Notes: a model not told the origin generated them from the sequence alone. A stretch of DNA of 64,000 nt from Patescibacteria group bacterium (GCA_050947035.1 JBMNVW010000003.1:25992-89991), one strand, 5' to 3'. Positions 252-61,914 are shown, counted from the first letter of the stretch. Translations and numbers: made by a program.

Positions 252-328
252 TGGTCGGGGATGCCGGACTCGAACCGGCGGCCTCACGCACCCCATGCGC
301 GCGCGCTAGCCATCTGCGCCAATCCCCG
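252..328 (-). tRNA. tRNA-Pro (anticodon GGG), CCA encoded
   Basis: Reverse complement folds as acceptor CGGGGAT/ATCCCCG, D-arm GCGC-AGATGGCTA-GCGC, anticodon stem CGCGC/GCGTG with loop AUGGGGU (U33, GGG, G37), T-arm GCCGG-TTCGAGT-CCGGC and ACCA tail. Close to the E. coli tRNA-Pro pattern CGGnGATTGGCGCAG. Confidence 0.85.
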
Positions 329-577: not shown

Positions 578-590
578 ATTAAAAATTTCA

Positions 591-700
591 CACTCGCGCA
601 CCCCGTCGGGCAGAGCCGTCAGCTGAAAAGCCTTTAGCTGGTAGCCTTCTGGGCGGCGCCCATGCGCGCGCTAAGCTAAATAATTGCGCCACATCCCGTT
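591..700 (-). other. degenerate tRNA-Pro-like 5' half (pseudo-tRNA fragment) with a ~52-nt insertion at the anticodon-loop position; no T-arm or 3' acceptor
   Basis: Minus-strand GGGATGTGGCGCA..GCGCGCGCATGGG[52-nt insert]GGGGTGCGCGAGTG is collinear with tRNA-Pro CGGGGATTGGCGCA..GCGCGCGCGCATGGGGTGCGTGAGG. The GCGCGCGCATGGG and GGGGTGCG blocks are shared. Confidence 0.45.
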
Positions 701-15956: not shown

Positions 15957-15995
15957 CGAGATCCTTCGGCCGCTTGAGGCGATCTCAGGATGAGG
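15957..15995 (+). repeat. half copy (3' arm) of the GTCATCCTGA..CGAAGGATC hairpin repeat family
   Basis: GAGATCCTTCGgccgcttgaggcgaTCTCAGGATGAGgg aligns with the 3' halves of the copies at 25381 and 55888. Confidence 0.4.
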
Positions 15996-22099: not shown

Positions 22100-23782
22100 A
22101 TGAAAGACTGGCAAGTTAAGTTTAGGCCTCTTGGTCAAACGACCAAAAAGCGTCAAAAAGAAATAATTGATTTTTTGTTAGCTGATCGAGGAATTATGAA
22201 GGAAAAGGATTTTTTTTCTCCTCCTCGTCCGACTAATATTTTGCCCCAAGATGTGGGTATCAATCCTAAGAAGATTGATCAGGCGATTAAAATAATTTTA
22301 GCGACTAAAAAATCGGGTCAGAAAGTTCTAATTTGGGGAGATTATGATGCTGACGGCATTGTCGGCACCAGTCTTCTCTGGGAGGCTTTGTGGAAATCAG
22401 GAATTGAAGCAATTCCTTTTATTCCCGACCGATCGGAGGGTTATGGTCTTAGTTTTTCCTCTTTTAAAAAAATTTATCAAGAAAATCCCGATATTAATTT
22501 AGTAATTACGGTTGACAATGGTATCGTTGCCCACAGTGAGGTTGATAAGATTGCCTCTTTGGGACCAAAAGTTATTATCACTGATCATCATACCAAGGGA
22601 AAAAAACTTCCTTTGGCCAAGACCATTGTTTGGAGTGACCAGGTTTGTGGAGCGACAGTGGCTTGGTTTTTAGCGCGAAAAATAGTCGACCAGGATGATT
22701 ATGGCTTAGATTTAGTTGCCTTAGCGACAGTGGCCGATATGATGCCCCTTTTGGGGCCAAATCGAAGTCTAGTTAAGTTCGGTCTAGACTATTTGGCTAA
22801 AACTGATCGGCCAGGCCTAAAGGCTTTGATGAAGCAAGCCGGAATTGATAGTCGCCAAGGCCTATCAGTCTATCATTTAGGATTTTTGCTTGGGCCCCGG
22901 CTTAATGCCATGGGTCGGCTTTATAATGCTTTGGATTCGGTTCGCCTTCTTTGTACCATCGATTCAGATCGAGCCCAGAAATTAGCCGAAAAATTAGATT
23001 TAGCTAATCGTAAGCGGCAAACCATGACCACCAAGGCCCTAGAGATTGCCAAAAAATCTTTGCCGGAAAAGATTGATCAAGAAAAACTAATTTTTGTTCA
23101 TCATCCCTCTTTTCATCCTGGAATTATTGGCTTAGTGGCTGGAAAGTTAACCGAAAGTTTTTATCGGCCCAGCGTAGTTTTGGCCGAAGAAGATGGCTTT
23201 TGTCGGGCCTCTTGTCGATCGGTTAAGGGTTTTAATATTATCAAGGCCCTAAAAGATCTCGATGGACTAATTGATGTTGGCGGTCACCCTTTGGCCGCCG
23301 GATTTACTATTAAAAAGAAGGATTTGGCTAAAGTAAAGAAACAACTTTTATCTTTGGCCCAAAAAAGGATTAAGGCCAAAGCACTTCAACCAGCCTTGAC
23401 TATTGACGCTAAGGTTAATTTTCCCGATCTTAATTATGGTTTTTGGAAAAAATTGAATCGTTTTGCCCCTTTTGGTCTTGGTAACCCGGAACCGGTTTTT
23501 TACACCTCCCAAGCTATTATTAAAAGTCTAAGGCGGGTGGGGCGAAACGGTGATCATTTGAAATTAATTCTTGATGATAGCCAAACCAAGAAGGTAGAGA
23601 AAACTCCGGCCCAATTTGATATTGGCCAACAATTATTGCCAGGAATTGGTTTTGGTTTAGGTCAGGAAGATCTACAGGTTGGTGATCAGGTTGATTTGGC
23701 CTTTAACCTAATTCTTAATCGCTATCGAGGTCAGGAAAACTTAGAATTGAAAATAAAAGGAATAAAAAAATATGAAGGCTGA
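22100..23782 (+). CDS. recJ: single-stranded-DNA-specific exonuclease RecJ
   Basis: DHH motifs (GDYDADGI, ITDHH), DHHA1 domain GGHPLAAG. Confidence 0.9.
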   Translation: MKDWQVKFRPLGQTTKKRQKEIIDFLLADRGIMKEKDFFSPPRPTNILPQDVGINPKKIDQAIKIILATKKSGQKVLIWGDYDADGIVGTSLLWEALWKSGIEAIPFIPDRSEGYGLSFSSFKKIYQENPDINLVITVDNGIVAHSEVDKIASLGPKVIITDHHTKGKKLPLAKTIVWSDQVCGATVAWFLARKIVDQDDYGLDLVALATVADMMPLLGPNRSLVKFGLDYLAKTDRPGLKALMKQAGIDSRQGLSVYHLGFLLGPRLNAMGRLYNALDSVRLLCTIDSDRAQKLAEKLDLANRKRQTMTTKALEIAKKSLPEKIDQEKLIFVHHPSFHPGIIGLVAGKLTESFYRPSVVLAEEDGFCRASCRSVKGFNIIKALKDLDGLIDVGGHPLAAGFTIKKKDLAKVKKQLLSLAQKRIKAKALQPALTIDAKVNFPDLNYGFWKKLNRFAPFGLGNPEPVFYTSQAIIKSLRRVGRNGDHLKLILDDSQTKKVEKTPAQFDIGQQLLPGIGFGLGQEDLQVGDQVDLAFNLILNRYRGQENLELKIKGIKKYEG

Positions 23783-25277
23783 TAAACAAAAAGAAATTAC
23801 CATTGACCAATTGGTTGAAAAAATAGCCGGTTATCATCCCAAGTCAAATAAGAAGCTAATCGAGCGGGCTTATGATTTTGCCAATCGTTATCATCAGGGC
23901 CAAAAAAGACTTTCTGGTGAACCAGTAATCAACCATAGCTTATCAGTTGCCGATATTGTGGTTGATTGGCGGTTAGATTCGGCCTCAGTCGCGGCCGCCT
24001 TACTACATGACGTGGTCGAAGATACTCCAGCCAAGATCGAGACTATCAAGAAAAAATTTGGTCGAGAAATGGCTAATTTGGTAGATGGTCTAACTAGAGT
24101 TAGTCGGGTAAGATTGCGCGGCTCTAACAATGAACAATTTATCGAAAACTTAAGAAAGATGTTTTTAGCCATGTCACGGGATTTGCGAGTGGTGTTTGTT
24201 AAATTGGCTGATCGTTATCATAATATGCAAACTTTGGAGCATCTTCCGCCCGATAAACAGTTTGGCATTGCCGAAGAGACTTTAGAGGTTTATGCCCCTT
24301 TGGCGGAGCGGTTAGGGATGGGTCGGGCTAAGGGAGTCTTAGAGGACTTGGCCTTTATGTATTGTCACCCGGCCGACTATGAGTGGCTGATTGATTATTC
24401 AGCCTCCTATTATAAGAAAGCGGAGAAGAGAATTAAAAAGTTAAAGAGAACTATTCTTAAAGAGTTGGCTCAAGAAGGGGTTCGAGTCAAGGTCGATGGT
24501 CGAGCCAAACACCTTTACAGCCTGTGGCGGAAGTTATTGCGGCCGGAAAACGAGAAAGATATTAATAATATTCACGACTTAATGGCCCTAAGAATTATAA
24601 CTTCTGATATTAATGAATGTTATTTGGCTCTAGGTTTGGTTCATAAGTTGTGGCGCCCGGTGCCCCATTTGGGAGTTCGAGACTGGATTGCCCAGCCCAA
24701 ACCCAACGGTTATCGATCAATTCATACCAATGTTTTTTTGGGTGATGGTCAAATTATTGAGATTCAAATTAGGACGGAGGAAATGCACGAACAGGCCGAA
24801 CACGGAGCAGCGGCCCATTGGCATTTGGCAGAAATTAAATCTAAAAATAAAATAGACTCTCAAGGAATTGATCAAGGAAAATTTTTTTCTCCAACTCAAA
24901 AAATGGCTTGGGTTAAACAGCTGGCGGCCTGGCAAGATGAAATTATTGATTCGGGTGATTTTATTGCCTCAGTTAAATTTGATGCTCTAAAGCATCGGAT
25001 TTTTGTTTTTTCTCCCAAGGGCGATGCCTTTGATTTGCCTGATGGGGCCACTCCGGTTGATTTTGCCTACAAGATTCACACCAAAATGGGTCATCAGGCT
25101 TGTGGGGCCAAGGTTAATGGTCGGATGGCGAGCTTAGACTATCAGCTTAAAAATGGAGAAATTGTGGAGATTTTACTTGACCGTAACCGAAAAGGACCGG
25201 CTTCTTCTTGGTTGGATTTTGTCAAAACCCGCTTGGCAAAGAGGAAAATTAAATCGGCCCTGAGAACTAGCATCTAG
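23772..25277 (+). CDS. rel: bifunctional (p)ppGpp synthetase/hydrolase, RelA/SpoT family (short form)
   Basis: HD hydrolase domain (HSLSVA..HDVVEDT), synthetase domain (RAKHLYSLWRK, YRSIHT), TGS region. Confidence 0.9.
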   Translation: MKADKQKEITIDQLVEKIAGYHPKSNKKLIERAYDFANRYHQGQKRLSGEPVINHSLSVADIVVDWRLDSASVAAALLHDVVEDTPAKIETIKKKFGREMANLVDGLTRVSRVRLRGSNNEQFIENLRKMFLAMSRDLRVVFVKLADRYHNMQTLEHLPPDKQFGIAEETLEVYAPLAERLGMGRAKGVLEDLAFMYCHPADYEWLIDYSASYYKKAEKRIKKLKRTILKELAQEGVRVKVDGRAKHLYSLWRKLLRPENEKDINNIHDLMALRIITSDINECYLALGLVHKLWRPVPHLGVRDWIAQPKPNGYRSIHTNVFLGDGQIIEIQIRTEEMHEQAEHGAAAHWHLAEIKSKNKIDSQGIDQGKFFSPTQKMAWVKQLAAWQDEIIDSGDFIASVKFDALKHRIFVFSPKGDAFDLPDGATPVDFAYKIHTKMGHQACGAKVNGRMASLDYQLKNGEIVEILLDRNRKGPASSWLDFVKTRLAKRKIKSALRTSI

Positions 25278-25380
25278 TATTTAACATTCAGTATTTAGTA
25301 TCTGGTATTTAGGTTAAAGGTTTAACAGGGGAAAAACTAGATCTTTTTATTTCTTGTCTTGAGATTGCTTTTTTTACTTT

Positions 25381-25508
25381 GTCATCCTGAGCCCTTAGGC
25401 GAAGGATCCCGTGCTTGGCTGCCTTTTCGGTTGGGATTCTTCTGTCGCCTGAGGCGGCCTCAGAATGACGGGGGAAAGACCCCTTAGAATAAAAAACAAT
25501 TTAACAAT
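25381..25508 (+). repeat. full copy of a ~90-nt nested inverted-repeat (hairpin) element plus the conserved downstream AAAAACAATTTAACAAT box
   Basis: GTCATCCTGAG..CGAAGGATCC..GGGATTCTTC..CTCAGAATGAC. The same architecture recurs at 55888. Confidence 0.7.
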
Positions 25509-30543: not shown

Positions 30544-30615
30544 TGCCGGGTGGAGTAATGGTAGTCTCATCGCGCTCTGAACGCGAAGATCTAGGTTCGA
30601 GTCCTAGCCCGGCAA
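30544..30615 (+). tRNA. tRNA-Gln (anticodon CUG), CCA not encoded
   Basis: U1-A72 acceptor TGCCGGG/CCCGGCA, 3-bp D-stem, anticodon stem TCGCG/CGCGA with loop CUCUGAA, T-arm CTAGG-TTCGAGT-CCTAG. Confidence 0.8.
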
Positions 30616-30845
30616 CATTAGTTGCTGGGCTTAGACGAGAACCTAGTAAAGGCTCTGATTAACAAGACGAAAAAGCCGGTCGAGCTGTTGTTATATTAAT
30701 TAACAAGGCAAGAATACGGTCCTTGTCGTCTTCGAGTCCTAGCCGGGCAACATTAGTTGCTGGGTTTAGACGAGAACCTAGTAAAGGCTCTGATTAACAA
30801 GACGAAAAAGACAATCGTGTTGTTGTTATCTCAACCAAGCTATCA
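30597..30845 (+). repeat. ~134-nt tandem direct duplication (about 1.9 copies) beginning inside the tRNA-Gln T-loop
   Basis: TTCGAGTCCTAGCCCGGCAACATTAGTTGCTGGGCTTAGACGAGAACCTAGTAAAGGCTCTGATTAACAAGACGAAAAAG at 30597-30675 is repeated at 30731-30810 with 2 substitutions. The following ~30 nt are also similar. Confidence 0.75.
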
Positions 30846-44202: not shown

Positions 44203-44290
44203 GATAAATACGACACCGTATTTATTAATAAAAGAATAAAAATATTATTTATCGCTTTATCCTGACAAGTAAATACTTTACCGTATTTAG
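44203..44290. promoter_or_regulatory. bipartite palindrome pair: GATAAATACGACACCGTATTTATT, then TAAATACTTTACCGTATTTA 65 nt downstream
   Basis: Same two-site arrangement and spacing as at 61163-61249 and 61800-61887. Confidence 0.6.
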
Positions 44291-44350
44291 AAAGAAGAGT
44301 TTACAAATATCCGCTAACAATTTTCTATCGGAATTTTATTTAATGGTTTT

Positions 44351-55428: not shown

Positions 55429-55467
55429 AATTAGACCGGTCTTAATCGATTGTATTATAATGGGCCT

Positions 55468-55863
55468 ATGGCGAAGTCTTGGTTTTTTAAGCTTCTTATT
55501 TTAGTTATTTTGATAGGCGCTTTAGCCTATTTTTTTGATTCCAATTTGGTTAAAAATTGGTTTGGCTATTCTCAGGTGTTAGGAGAGGAGGCCGGCCCGA
55601 TTTTTGAAGAAAAATTATTATCACCGGCCAAAGATGTTGTCAATCGTCATTTTCGTTGGCCTCAAAAAGAAGACCTGGAACCCCTGCCAAGGTTAGTTGT
55701 CGAAGAAAAAAACCAAGAATCTCCCCCCAGTCAGGCTGAGTTTGATCAGTCTTTGGAAACCCTAACCGAAGAAATTAAGAAACTGCCCCAACAACAGTTA
55801 ATAAAAGTTAAAGAACAGTTAATTAAGGAAATTTTTCCCGATTGTCATTGTGTGTGCGAATAG
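55468..55863 (+). CDS. membrane-anchored hypothetical protein
   Basis: ORF with N-terminal TM. TATTATAAT box ends 7 nt before this ATG, so the start is uncertain (track start 55450 is TTG). Confidence 0.3.
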   Translation: MAKSWFFKLLILVILIGALAYFFDSNLVKNWFGYSQVLGEEAGPIFEEKLLSPAKDVVNRHFRWPQKEDLEPLPRLVVEEKNQESPPSQAEFDQSLETLTEEIKKLPQQQLIKVKEQLIKEIFPDCHCVCE

Positions 55864-55887
55864 GAAAGAAGCTTGTTCTTTTTTTTC

Positions 55888-56022
55888 GTCATCCTGAAGG
55901 AGCGGCAAACGACCGAAGGATCTCTTTTTTGAGCAAAAGGATGGGATCCTTCGCCTAAAGGCTCAGGATGACAGGGGTAGAGGTTGGTCTAAAAACAACA
56001 TTTAAAAAAACAATTTAACAAT
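55888..56022 (+). repeat. full copy of the ~90-nt nested hairpin element plus the downstream AAAAACAA..TTTAACAAT box, upstream of prfB
   Basis: GTCATCCTGA..CGAAGGATC..GGATCCTTCG..TCAGGATGAC. The outer 10-bp and inner 9-10-bp stems are both perfect. Confidence 0.75.
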
Positions 56023-56042
56023 ATAGTAATTAGATTTTATTT

Positions 56043-57059
56043 ATGGACAAGCAAGAACTAGAGAAAAAACTAGCGGTTATTTTTCAAAAATTAGCGATTG
56101 AGGAGAAAACCAAGAAATTGGCGAAACTAAAAGAAAAAATTAAAGATCAATCTTTTTGGGATGATCACAGGGCGGCCAGCCAGGTTATGCAAGAAATTTC
56201 CACTTTGGAAGCCCTTATTGATCGGGTGACCATGGCCCAACTTTTAGTTGAAGAGGAGAATTGGCCAAAGGCTCGGAAAATAATTAAAACTCTAGAGAGA
56301 GAGCTTTATTTTTCTGGCAAGTATGATTCGGGTCCGGCCATTATGACAATTCAGGCTGGTCAAGGAGGAACCGAGGCGATGGATTGGGCCTCGATGTTAG
56401 TAAGAATGTACCAACGCTTTTTTGAAAGAAAGGGCTGGCAGTATCGAATTTTGGATCGTTCTGCCGGAGATGAGGCTGGTATTAAAAACCTTACTATGAA
56501 GATTGATGGCCCCAACGCTTATGGTTTGTTAAAATTTGAACAAGGAGCTCATCGTTTGGTTCGTCAGTCCCCTTTTAACGCCGATAATCTAAGACAGACC
56601 TCTTTTGCTCGAGTTGAAGTGTTACCGGTTTTACCGGAAGCCGATTTTACTCTAAACGAAGACGAGATTGAGTTTGAGGCCTTTCGAGCTGGTGGTCATG
56701 GCGGTCAAAACGTTAACAAGGTGGCCACAGCGGTTCGTTTGCGTCATAAACCAAGCGGAATCGTGGTTACTTCTCAATCAGAAAGACGGCAATTGCAAAA
56801 TCGCAAAATTGCCCTTGATCTATTAAGAAACAAGCTTTGGGCGCTGGCTGAAGAAGAAAGAGAAAAAACTGCCGCTCAGGTTCGCGGAGAGTATCGCCCC
56901 GCTTCCTGGGGAAATCAGATTCGTTCTTATGTTTTACATCCTTATAAAATGATTAAAGACTTACGAACCAATCAAGAAACCTCGGATGTTGAGAGTTTTT
57001 TAGATGGTGATTTAGAAACTTTTCTTGAGGCTAACCTTAGGCTCTTGGCAACAGTTTAG
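56043..57059 (+). CDS. prfB: peptide chain release factor 2 (no programmed frameshift)
   Basis: SPF and GGQ motifs. Continuous ORF from M1. Confidence 0.9.
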   Translation: MDKQELEKKLAVIFQKLAIEEKTKKLAKLKEKIKDQSFWDDHRAASQVMQEISTLEALIDRVTMAQLLVEEENWPKARKIIKTLERELYFSGKYDSGPAIMTIQAGQGGTEAMDWASMLVRMYQRFFERKGWQYRILDRSAGDEAGIKNLTMKIDGPNAYGLLKFEQGAHRLVRQSPFNADNLRQTSFARVEVLPVLPEADFTLNEDEIEFEAFRAGGHGGQNVNKVATAVRLRHKPSGIVVTSQSERRQLQNRKIALDLLRNKLWALAEEEREKTAAQVRGEYRPASWGNQIRSYVLHPYKMIKDLRTNQETSDVESFLDGDLETFLEANLRLLATV

Positions 57060-61046: not shown

Positions 61047-61162
61047 CTTAATCTAATTATACAATAGCCTATATTTATTTTTTTCAACTTATTTTATTAA
61101 GTTTTATCAGAACAAAGCATTTTTTTTGAAAAAAATGATAAAAAAAAGACTGATTTCAAGCC

Positions 61163-61249
61163 TTAAATACGGTACCGTATTTAAAAAATTAGGTATCTTT
61201 TTTAAAAAAATGCCGAGATATTAGTATTTAAATACTTTACCGTATTTAA
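61163..61249. promoter_or_regulatory. bipartite palindrome pair: perfect 22-bp palindrome TTAAATACGGTACCGTATTTAA, then variant TTAAATACTTTACCGTATTTAA 65 nt downstream
   Basis: Lies in the divergent promoter region between the 60534 (-) and 61337 (+) genes. Confidence 0.65.
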
Positions 61250-61336
61250 ATAGCAAATGGGGTTGAAAAACTATTTCAGTTTGGGGTAGGATTAAGTTAT
61301 TAATTTTTAGTTTGCCAAATTGGCCAATCTGCCCAA

Positions 61337-61780
61337 GTGACCAAGTTACCCAAAAAACCGTTATCGATAAAAAAGGAAAAAGAAATCTTGGCTAATTTTG
61401 ATCAGTTTTTAGGGGCGATTGATAAAAAAGACGATTGGCAAATAATTTGTGAAAGTCTCTTAACCCCCACCGAAAGGTTAGTTTTGGCCAAAAGACTGCA
61501 AATGGGAATTTTGCTTCTTAAAGGCTATTCTTATCAAAAAATTGAACAAGAACTAGACACCAGCTCTACCACCATTGCCAAAATTGCCAATATTTTTTCT
61601 CGCCAGACCCGATTAGCGGACCTAGTTCATTTCATTTTTCTTTATCCAGAAGAAAATAAACCGCCGAAAGAAAAACTTTCCCCTCATCCTAAAGTAAACC
61701 GGGCCCTAAAAATGATGGGTTTTAAAGAAAAAACTTTTTATGAAAAGTTAGGCCAAAAAGAGAAAGAAAAAAGGGGCTAA
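61337..61780 (+). CDS. TrpR-like/YerC-YecD-family DNA-binding protein
   Basis: LLTPTERLVLAKRLQMGILLLKGYSYQKIEQELDTSSTTIAKIAN HTH region. Confidence 0.5.
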   Translation: MTKLPKKPLSIKKEKEILANFDQFLGAIDKKDDWQIICESLLTPTERLVLAKRLQMGILLLKGYSYQKIEQELDTSSTTIAKIANIFSRQTRLADLVHFIFLYPEENKPPKEKLSPHPKVNRALKMMGFKEKTFYEKLGQKEKEKRG

Positions 61781-61799
61781 ATTTTTAAGAGGAGTTGAA

Positions 61800-61887
61800 G
61801 ATAAATACGGTACCGTATTTATCAGAAAAATAAATGATTTTAAAAAAAGGGCTATGTTTAGGCTTTTAAATACTTTACCGTATTTAA
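61800..61887. promoter_or_regulatory. bipartite palindrome pair: perfect 24-bp palindrome GATAAATACGGTACCGTATTTATC, then TTAAATACTTTACCGTATTTAA 66 nt downstream
   Basis: Immediately upstream of the 61915 gene. Confidence 0.65.
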
Positions 61888-61914
61888 AATTTGGTAAAAA
61901 ATTAAGATTTTTTT

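Follow-up and report, generated by a model that had tools for sequence, protein, structure and literature searches.

Nested hairpins upstream of aspS and prfB in a Shapirobacteria-like bacterium as probable inverted doublets of an Ssn-related DNA hairpin repeat

Introduction

Here we report on two nested-hairpin elements in the genome of a Shapirobacteria-like CPR bacterium. The window, by which we mean the whole stretch of 64,000 nucleotides that was analysed, has a G+C content of 39.7%. The element designated copy A lies between a RelA/SpoT-like gene and aspS, and copy B lies between an open reading frame of 137 amino acids and prfB, the gene for RF2. Both are situated 3' of co-directional genes, 25 and 103 nt past the stop codons. 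Loci and proteins from other genomes are given below under our own labels, which begin with L and P, respectively. The genes and repeat elements of the window are as follows.

15960..15995, minus strand: solo unit, tag CCTC, sequence CTCATCCTGAGATCGCCTCAAGCGGCCGAAGGATC, flanked by genes for PGA_cap and DUF4446 proteins
23772-25277: RelA/SpoT-like gene, upstream of copy A
25380-25470: copy A doublet, between the RelA/SpoT-like gene and aspS
25380..25408, plus strand: left unit of copy A, tag TGTC, short form GTCATCCTGAGCCCTTAGGCGAAGGATC (from sequence, pattern match and fold)
25409..25434, no strand: spacer of copy A, 26 nt (from sequence)
25435..25470, minus strand: right unit of copy A, tag CGTC, long insert, compensatory stem ATTCT/AGAAT (from sequence and fold)
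25617: start of aspS, downstream of copy A
55450-55863: open reading frame of 137 aa, upstream of copy B
55887-55973: copy B doublet, between the 137-aa open reading frame and prfB
55887..55922, plus strand: left unit of copy B, tag CGTC, stem ATCCT/AGGAT, long insert AGGAGCGGCAAACGACC (from sequence, exact pattern match and fold)
55923..55944, no strand: spacer of copy B, 22 nt, the apical stem-loop in the long-hairpin fold
55945..55973, minus strand: right unit of copy B, tag TGTC, short form GTCATCCTGAGCCTTTAGGCGAAGGATC (from sequence, pattern match and fold)
56043-57059: prfB (RF2), downstream of copy B

A preliminary description of this DNA had reported the two nested hairpins, their position between the end of one gene and aspS or prfB, and a half copy near 15957-15995. 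All of these were recovered: the stem arms were located in the sequence, the flanking genes are those that had been named, and the half copy corresponds to the minus-strand unit at 15960-15995.

Anatomy of the elements

In copy B the outer stem is formed by GTCATCCTGA (55888-55897) and TCAGGATGAC (55963-55972), and the inner stem by GAAGGATC and GATCCTTC; copy A shows these same arms. Both elements fold into long hairpins that are more stable than shuffled controls, with z scores of -4.3 and -2.6 when folded as DNA and of -5.0 and -3.6 when folded as RNA, and the folding energy as RNA is about -40 kcal/mol. A single arm also folds alone: the 5-bp stem ATYCT/AGRAT is followed by a tandem G·A and an inner stem of 2-3 bp.

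Each full copy consists of two units in inverted orientation with the GTC tags facing outward, separated by 26 nt in copy A and 22 nt in copy B. A unit is 28-36 nt long and has the form (C/T)GTCATYCTGAG, mini-hairpin, GAAGRATC. The window holds five units, namely the two inverted pairs and the solo unit, with tags CGTC (two), TGTC (two) and CCTC (one). Copy A is a short (plus) and long (minus) pair and copy B a long (plus) and short (minus) pair, and the right unit of copy B is 92% complementary to the left unit of copy A over 37 nt. What evolves as the repeat is a single arm, about 28-36 nt in length, and not the whole 90-nt structure. A search of the window with TCATYCTGA-N5-32-GAAGRATC gave five exact matches, compared with 0 in 300 first-order Markov simulations.

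The stems of copy A had been described beforehand as carrying G-U changes. The change itself is present, but it is a compensatory pair within the right unit (ATTCT..AGAAT instead of ATCCT..AGGAT), which takes on the appearance of G-U pairing when this within-arm change is viewed in the long-hairpin fold. The elements had no match in Rfam at the gathering threshold, nor in two local permissive scans, and literature searches with the raw sequence strings or the encoded peptides returned primer coincidences only.

Two further repeats were observed in the window. Several copies of a palindrome TAAATAC-N4-GTATTTA occur at 44205-44310 and 61135-61888 (repeat families D3 and D5), some of them around a gene that matches a Trp_repressor-family gene in L202; these are candidate operator sites. 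A tandem duplication of 104 nt (30596-30699 and 30731-30834, 91% identity) starts inside the 3' end of a tRNA gene at 30544-30615.

Occurrence and covariation of the unit

A set of 185,579 species genomes was scanned with the pattern TCATYCTGAG-N4-30-GAAGRATC, which returned at least 120 loci. The matches come from at least 120 species, which represent most bacterial phyla, and lie in unrelated contexts. Among the matches listed are Acidobacteriota, Chloroflexota, Nitrospirota, Bacteroidota, Firmicutes, Proteobacteria, Omnitrophota and Melainabacteria, and, within the CPR, Paceibacterota, Saccharibacteria and Gracilibacteria. The preliminary description had put forward a copy count over the whole genome or bin; the window holds five units, and the unit occurs in at least 120 species.

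The covariation proposed there as a second check was found as well. Among the matches listed, 183 exact units were compared, and the free stem position was C..G in 97 and T..A in 83 of them, with C..A in 3 and T..G in 0. A third state of this stem, ATGCT/AGCAT, occurs in L216. Pairing in the inner stem exceeds that of shuffled controls; the most frequent insert in these 183 units forms the mini-hairpin GCGNAGC, and GTGAAAC, the inner stem found in L238, is a compensatory form of GCGAAGC. The strict Watson-Crick covariation, with zero wobble pairs, suggests a repeat that acts as a DNA hairpin, which fits better than an RNA hairpin.

The sequence next to the unit is also constrained. Of the same 183 units, 180 have G at position -1, while 139 have T and 31 have C at position -2; the 5' flank reads YG, with pyrimidines farther upstream. 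Neighbouring units have the tags-outward order in 71 of 102 pairs among the matches listed, with gaps of 2-95 nt. According to crude gene calls, solo units lie in convergent intergenic regions more often than in divergent ones (19 versus 6), and those between co-directional genes have no clear strand bias (12 versus 7). When translated, the unit encodes the peptide VILSEAKDL.

Comparison with related lineages

The gene order around prfB is conserved in relatives. The closest relative at this locus, L201, has an RF2 that is 91% identical; its intergenic region of 28 nt, TAGaatagAAACAATTTAACAATttctgtttATG, holds the downstream box treated in the next section and no doublet. Three relatives at 82% (L202-L204) have neither box nor doublet upstream of prfB, and two others at 82% (L205 and L206) have a doublet there, with contigs that start inside it. 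At the other locus, relatives with an AspS identity of 83% (L226-L228) have an intergenic region of 83 nt upstream of aspS without a doublet, and L229 (88%) carries other hairpin repeats in its place. The doublets thus have empty sites in close relatives at both loci.

No target-site duplication is visible at either copy, and at the empty sites the intergenic regions are too diverged for a duplication or a clean insertion boundary to be read. The MITE-like mobile repeat was the nearest of the three explanations offered in the preliminary description: dispersed inverted pairs that are present or absent among close relatives agree with it, and the target-site duplication expected of it is not visible.

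To this comparison 80 aspS loci from metagenomes were added, which are distant relatives (about 50% identity) together with one partial close relative, so that they bear on conservation and not on empty sites. A unit lies upstream of aspS in two of the 80, L183 and L198, in both about 105 nt upstream; the two are related and count as one independent case.

The replacements in L229 lie at L229:1240-1375 and consist of three other hairpin repeats, of the CCACGGC-N4-GCCGTGG type and of the form CACCCGCC-TGT-GGCGGGTG. The spot upstream of aspS collects different repeats in different lineages. A separate observation concerns L205, in which positions 1-200 align with window positions 55944-56143 at 98% identity over the right arm of the doublet and the box and at 93% over the first 100 nt of prfB, while its prfB region overall is about 77% identical; the contig ends inside the element and its left edge is unseen. 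This stretch of high identity could reflect recombination, with a tract that begins at the repeat.

The likely aspS promoter and the downstream box

Three further features lie between the doublets and the translation genes.

25485..25508, plus strand: extended box TAGAATAAAAAACAATTTAACAAT to the right of copy A, resembling TAGAATAGAAACAATTTAACAAT of L201
25602..25619, plus strand: likely aspS promoter with extended -10 TGTTATAAT, 6 nt before the ATG
56005..56022, plus strand: box AAAAAACAATTTAACAAT upstream of prfB, adjoining copy B; also present in L201 without a doublet

The motif TGTTATAAT stands 6 nt before the aspS ATG both in the window and in L226 (L226:3985-4003), and the related GTGCTATAAT precedes the aspS ATG in L229 (L229:1375-1402). 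The AspS start is backed by an identical protein of 460 amino acids, P0241. Judged by its sequence and position, the extended -10 is likely the aspS promoter; a simple consensus scan gave no -35/-10 pair there. Since this -10 adjoins the ATG, copy A, which is about 135 nt upstream of it, would lie upstream of the likely transcription start and not in a leader, and the aspS mRNA is probably leaderless.

A box downstream of the hairpins had been described beforehand as common to both copies, and AACAATTTAACAAT does have exactly two occurrences in the 64 kb, one at 25495 and one at 56009, both on the right-hand side of a doublet at a distance of 20-35 nt. About 100 nt from the solo unit there is a weaker relative. 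In L201 the box upstream of prfB extends to TAGAATAGAAACAATTTAACAAT, which is close to the right flank of copy A. The doublet is flipped relative to the box between the two copies, because copy A has the short/long and copy B the long/short arrangement, and the side of the box stays constant. The flipped doublets and the box without a doublet in L201 indicate that the box is not part of the repeat unit. As read from these alignments, the box is real but separable: its adjacency to the element stood, and its standing as an integral part of the element did not. It could be a piece of a promoter or leader, a preferred insertion neighbourhood, or a remnant. The consensus scan gave no sigma-70-like promoter at the box.

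Association with GIY-YIG genes

The open reading frames that flank units among the matches listed (213 in total) were clustered, and the sole family present in more than two loci was a small GIY-YIG protein of 93-109 amino acids that matches Pfam PF01541. Eight independent loci carry this gene (L006, L024, L051, L207, L216, L230, L231 and L238), and units flank the gene (about 94 aa) on both sides in all eight. The distance from unit to gene is at most 131 nt in the seven loci that were measured, which are all but L238; in L238 too there are units on both sides of the ssn homologue. In L006, L024, L051 and L207, or four of the eight, the open reading frame lies directly between a plus and a minus unit, which is the geometry of the doublet with the gene replacing the spacer. 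The other four have whole doublets or same-sense units after the gene. Homologues of the protein that are 67-100% identical occur across Saccharibacteria, Chloroflexota, Nitrospirae, Syntrophales and Cyanobacteria.

The protein is homologous to the enzyme SsnA of Neisseria. A tblastn search gave an N. gonorrhoeae SsnA homologue that is 46% identical to P0137 (E = 3e-27), has canonical NTS repeats on both flanks of its gene and possesses Y6, Y17 and E64, the residues mutated in the published work (PMC11893778). The association of the repeat with GIY-YIG genes was also considered as an undescribed one, and this was rejected because it is already published (PMC11893778), although literature searches that combined GIY-YIG with REP or MITE terms gave no result. 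For two proteins that were checked over several samples, the identical protein was always found in one genomic context, which suggests that the ssn gene is single copy per genome in these two cases.

An ssn homologue was found neither in the 64-kb window nor in about 96 kb from relatives, with the exception of a distant, frameshifted GIY-YIG reading frame at 369-575 of the window; the copies in the window could be relics. This reading frame is on the minus strand, together with 590-690 (minus) and 252-328 (minus), matches PF01541 with E = 1.7e-12 and is interrupted by a frameshift within an A-run. On one side of it is a duplicated 5' half of tRNA-Pro(GGG) and on the other the intact tRNA-Pro gene, an arrangement that resembles a scar left by a mobile element inserted at a tRNA gene. 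It is unlikely to be the cognate enzyme, because it is only 33% identical to the Ssn family and has no flanking units.

Some observations were made on individual members of the family. In L238, a plasmid of Planktothrix agardhii (NZ_LR882964.1, 18847-19131), the Ssn homologue is 77% identical to P0137 and has many units around it; the gene lies in a defence-island context, between an MmeI-type restriction-modification gene and drmA of DISARM. L231 and L234 encode an identical Ssn protein, but the block of units upstream of the gene has an indel of about 280 nt between them, which points to recent turnover of the repeat.

Peptides encoded by the unit are found at the protein ends in 18 of the best 120 homologues, and 15 of these 18 end inside the tag, at residues 97-104, for instance with ...DSSLRSE. 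P0129, P0142, P0150 and others have such repeat-translated tails or heads (...DSSLRSE, CHSERSEES..., MLSEAKHL...). These are gene-calling artefacts, and they could mislead domain analyses.

Comparison with known systems

SsnA of Neisseria is a site-specific single-stranded DNA nuclease, a single-domain GIY-YIG protein of 94 amino acids assigned to cd10448 (Chenal et al. 2025, Nat Commun, PMC11893778). The hairpin repeat to which it binds, NTS (CGTCATTCCCGCGMAVGCGGGAATCYRG, a subset of dRS3), is recognised only in single-stranded form and on the tagged strand alone; the cut falls a few nucleotides upstream of this hairpin, and double-stranded DNA, RNA and the reverse strand are not acted on (PMC11893778). 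Repeats of the SRM type are found in the flanks of 71% of ssnA homologues, the NTS-ssnA-NTS layout resembles an insertion sequence, and the Neisseria Ssn system reduces the integration of transforming DNA that bears NTS (PMC11893778). The degenerate SRM pattern, HGTCWYN(0-2)YYVSBRHN(0-5)WNVSBRGN(0-2)RNCYNB, was derived from 29 genomes as a search tool and not as a definition (PMC11893778). In our hands it matched the Neisseria NTS and gave 0 hits in the window and 0 of the 5 units; nor does it match the pan-bacterial consensus of the unit, because of the tandem G·A.

The units of the window share with SRM/NTS an oriented hairpin semi-palindrome of about 20-50 nt, a conserved 5' (C/T)GTCAT head whose non-palindromic tag gives the orientation, and an intergenic, dispersed and often paired occurrence. 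The unit family also flanks GIY-YIG genes of about 94 amino acids, in the repeat-ssn-repeat layout that resembles an insertion sequence; such flanked genes were observed in other genomes, and they bear on the family and not on this genome. The differences lie in the stem, which is ATYCT-GA-mini-hairpin-GA-AGRAT and thus has a tandem G·A and an insert that varies, where SRM/NTS have the perfect ATTCCCGC stem, and in the host, a CPR bacterium with no ssn gene in the window.

The CGTC-tagged REPs have tags CGTC, TGTC and CCTC and stems that begin A-T then T-A; they are mostly inverted dimers, and no dedicated transposase is known for them (Di Nocera, De Gregorio & Rocco 2013, PMC3733652). CGTC-1 is the dRS3 repeat of Neisseria, RPE-4 and RPE-6 of Rickettsia also belong to these REPs, and neither a RAYT flanked by CGTC repeats nor an associated enzyme was found (PMC3733652). 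All three tag variants are present in the window, where the units likewise have the A-T then T-A stem, a short unpaired tail, an arrangement as inverted dimers, often long/short heterodimers, and a position between co-directional or convergent genes. CGTC-1 to CGTC-4 differ in having perfect stems of 8-9 bp and loops of 4-5 nt, compared with 5 bp, G·A/A·G, 2-3 bp and a 3-nt GNA loop or larger insert in the window unit. The peptides encoded by the CGTC families are VIPAKAGI, VIAGLDPAI and VIPWLDHGI, compared with VILSEAKDL for the window-type unit.

REPIN-RAYT systems and the REP/BIME elements of E. coli are also alike in that doublets of hairpin units form a long hairpin that is recognised as single-stranded DNA, and in a linked gene that is flanked by its own repeats and, for the two ssn cases checked, suggestively single copy. 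They differ in the tag, which is GTAG instead of (C/T)GTC, and in the enzyme, which is an HUH Y1 transposase with a covalent intermediate, as opposed to the hydrolytic GIY-YIG nuclease Ssn. For RAYTs a copying mechanism is plausible. With regard to MITEs, the inverted units act as terminal inverted repeats; neither copy is flanked by a direct repeat, and the empty sites are too diverged for boundaries to be seen.

Interpretation

The reading we prefer, to which we give a probability of roughly 0.78, is that the nested hairpins are tags-outward doublets of an Ssn-related DNA hairpin repeat of the SRM/NTS, CGTC-tagged REP class, and that their adjacency to aspS and prfB is incidental. The repeat is of a known kind, an Ssn-related CGTC-tagged repeat, in a sequence variant and a host group outside the published survey pattern.

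The preliminary description had also proposed a cis-regulatory RNA common to the two translation genes, that is, a structured 5' leader or attenuator. Both full copies are indeed upstream of translation genes, the RNA fold is strong (about -40 kcal/mol, z from -3.6 to -5), and in the unrelated lineage of L183 and L198 a unit stands upstream of aspS at a distance of about 105 nt. We nevertheless hold this explanation to be very improbable: the orthologous intergenic regions of the closest relatives lack the element, as do 78 of the 80 aspS loci, the likely aspS -10 is about 135 nt downstream of the hairpin and 6 nt from the ATG, there are zero G-U pairs in the 183 units among the matches listed, Rfam gives no match, and the unit occurs in unrelated contexts in at least 120 species. 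An RNA-level role, be it termination, insulation or 3'-end stabilisation for the relA-like gene and the 137-aa open reading frame, would be compatible with a DNA-level identity of the repeat, and such roles have been proposed for E. coli REPs. It would accord with strong hairpins situated 25 and 103 nt past the stops of co-directional genes and with the excess of solo units in convergent over divergent regions (19 to 6). It is unlikely all the same, given that no U-tract follows either hairpin, which also speaks against the shared terminator suggested earlier, and that a T-run stands before them instead. No scanned terminator spans a whole pair, the lone terminator-like hit being at 25414-25435 in the spacer of pair A, with none in pair B; the strand bias of solo units is not clear (12 versus 7), SsnA does not bind RNA (PMC11893778), and an RNA-level role leaves the conserved tag and the link to ssn unexplained.

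Mobilisation as a REP/REPIN by a RAYT (IS200/IS605-type Y1), or as a MITE with terminal inverted repeats by an ordinary transposase, would agree with inverted intergenic hairpin doublets that are polymorphic for presence and absence, as in REPINs and BIMEs (PMC3116915). This seems quite improbable when the tag is (C/T)GTC and not GTAG, no RAYT is flanked by CGTC repeats (Di Nocera et al., PMC3733652), the only recurrent family among the 213 flanking reading frames from the matches listed is the Ssn-type GIY-YIG protein, and no target-site duplication is visible at either copy. Chance palindromes without common origin had been named beforehand as the outcome that would undo the proposal; the moderate A+T richness of the window (39.7% G+C) is the one point in favour of this explanation. 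Five units against 0 in 300 simulations, a stretch of 37 nt that is 92% matched between copies A and B, and the presence of the unit in at least 120 species leave it a negligible probability.

A unit is made up of a pyrimidine-rich flank, the (C/T)GTC tag, the 5-bp ATYCT/AGRAT stem and the tandem G·A, which enclose an inner hairpin that is small and varies. Under the preferred reading, of an Ssn-related DNA hairpin repeat, the doublets of the window would be derivatives of a unit-ssn-unit element without the reading frame, or targets of such an element, and their gain or loss in intergenic DNA would be recent. As the two units of a doublet face opposite ways, each DNA strand would carry one unit in the cleavable orientation. 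A single strand exposed during DNA uptake, replication or repair may then be recognised by the cognate Ssn, if one is encoded.

A bolder proposal, which we regard as doubtful, is that the tandem-G·A repeat and its conserved Ssn partner form a distinct selfish module, which is transferred horizontally between phyla as unit-ssn-unit and leaves doublets without the reading frame, those in CPR marking sites at which incoming or replicating single-stranded DNA is cut. CPR bacteria rely on DNA uptake, and in them the doublets would set the ends of recombination tracts. The 98% tract of L205, which begins at the doublet upstream of prfB, would be one trace of this process, and the empty sites of sister lineages another. 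If the proposal is true, a hydrolytic GIY-YIG nuclease is what spreads these repeats, a family outside the reach of the published SRM pattern.

Conclusions

The elements upstream of aspS and prfB call for a correction of annotation, to dispersed Ssn-type repeats and not regulators of translation genes. The sequence variant described here has a very wide distribution that extends into the CPR, and the published SRM pattern does not detect it; surveys that use this pattern therefore understate the number of ssn genes with cognate repeats. Gene callers often translate the unit, which gives rise to spurious tails on Ssn proteins and probably also to small 'hypothetical proteins'. The Watson-Crick covariation and the tags-outward layout provide concrete substrates on which new Ssn enzymes can be tested; the interest of such enzymes lies in their use as site-specific single-stranded DNA nucleases.
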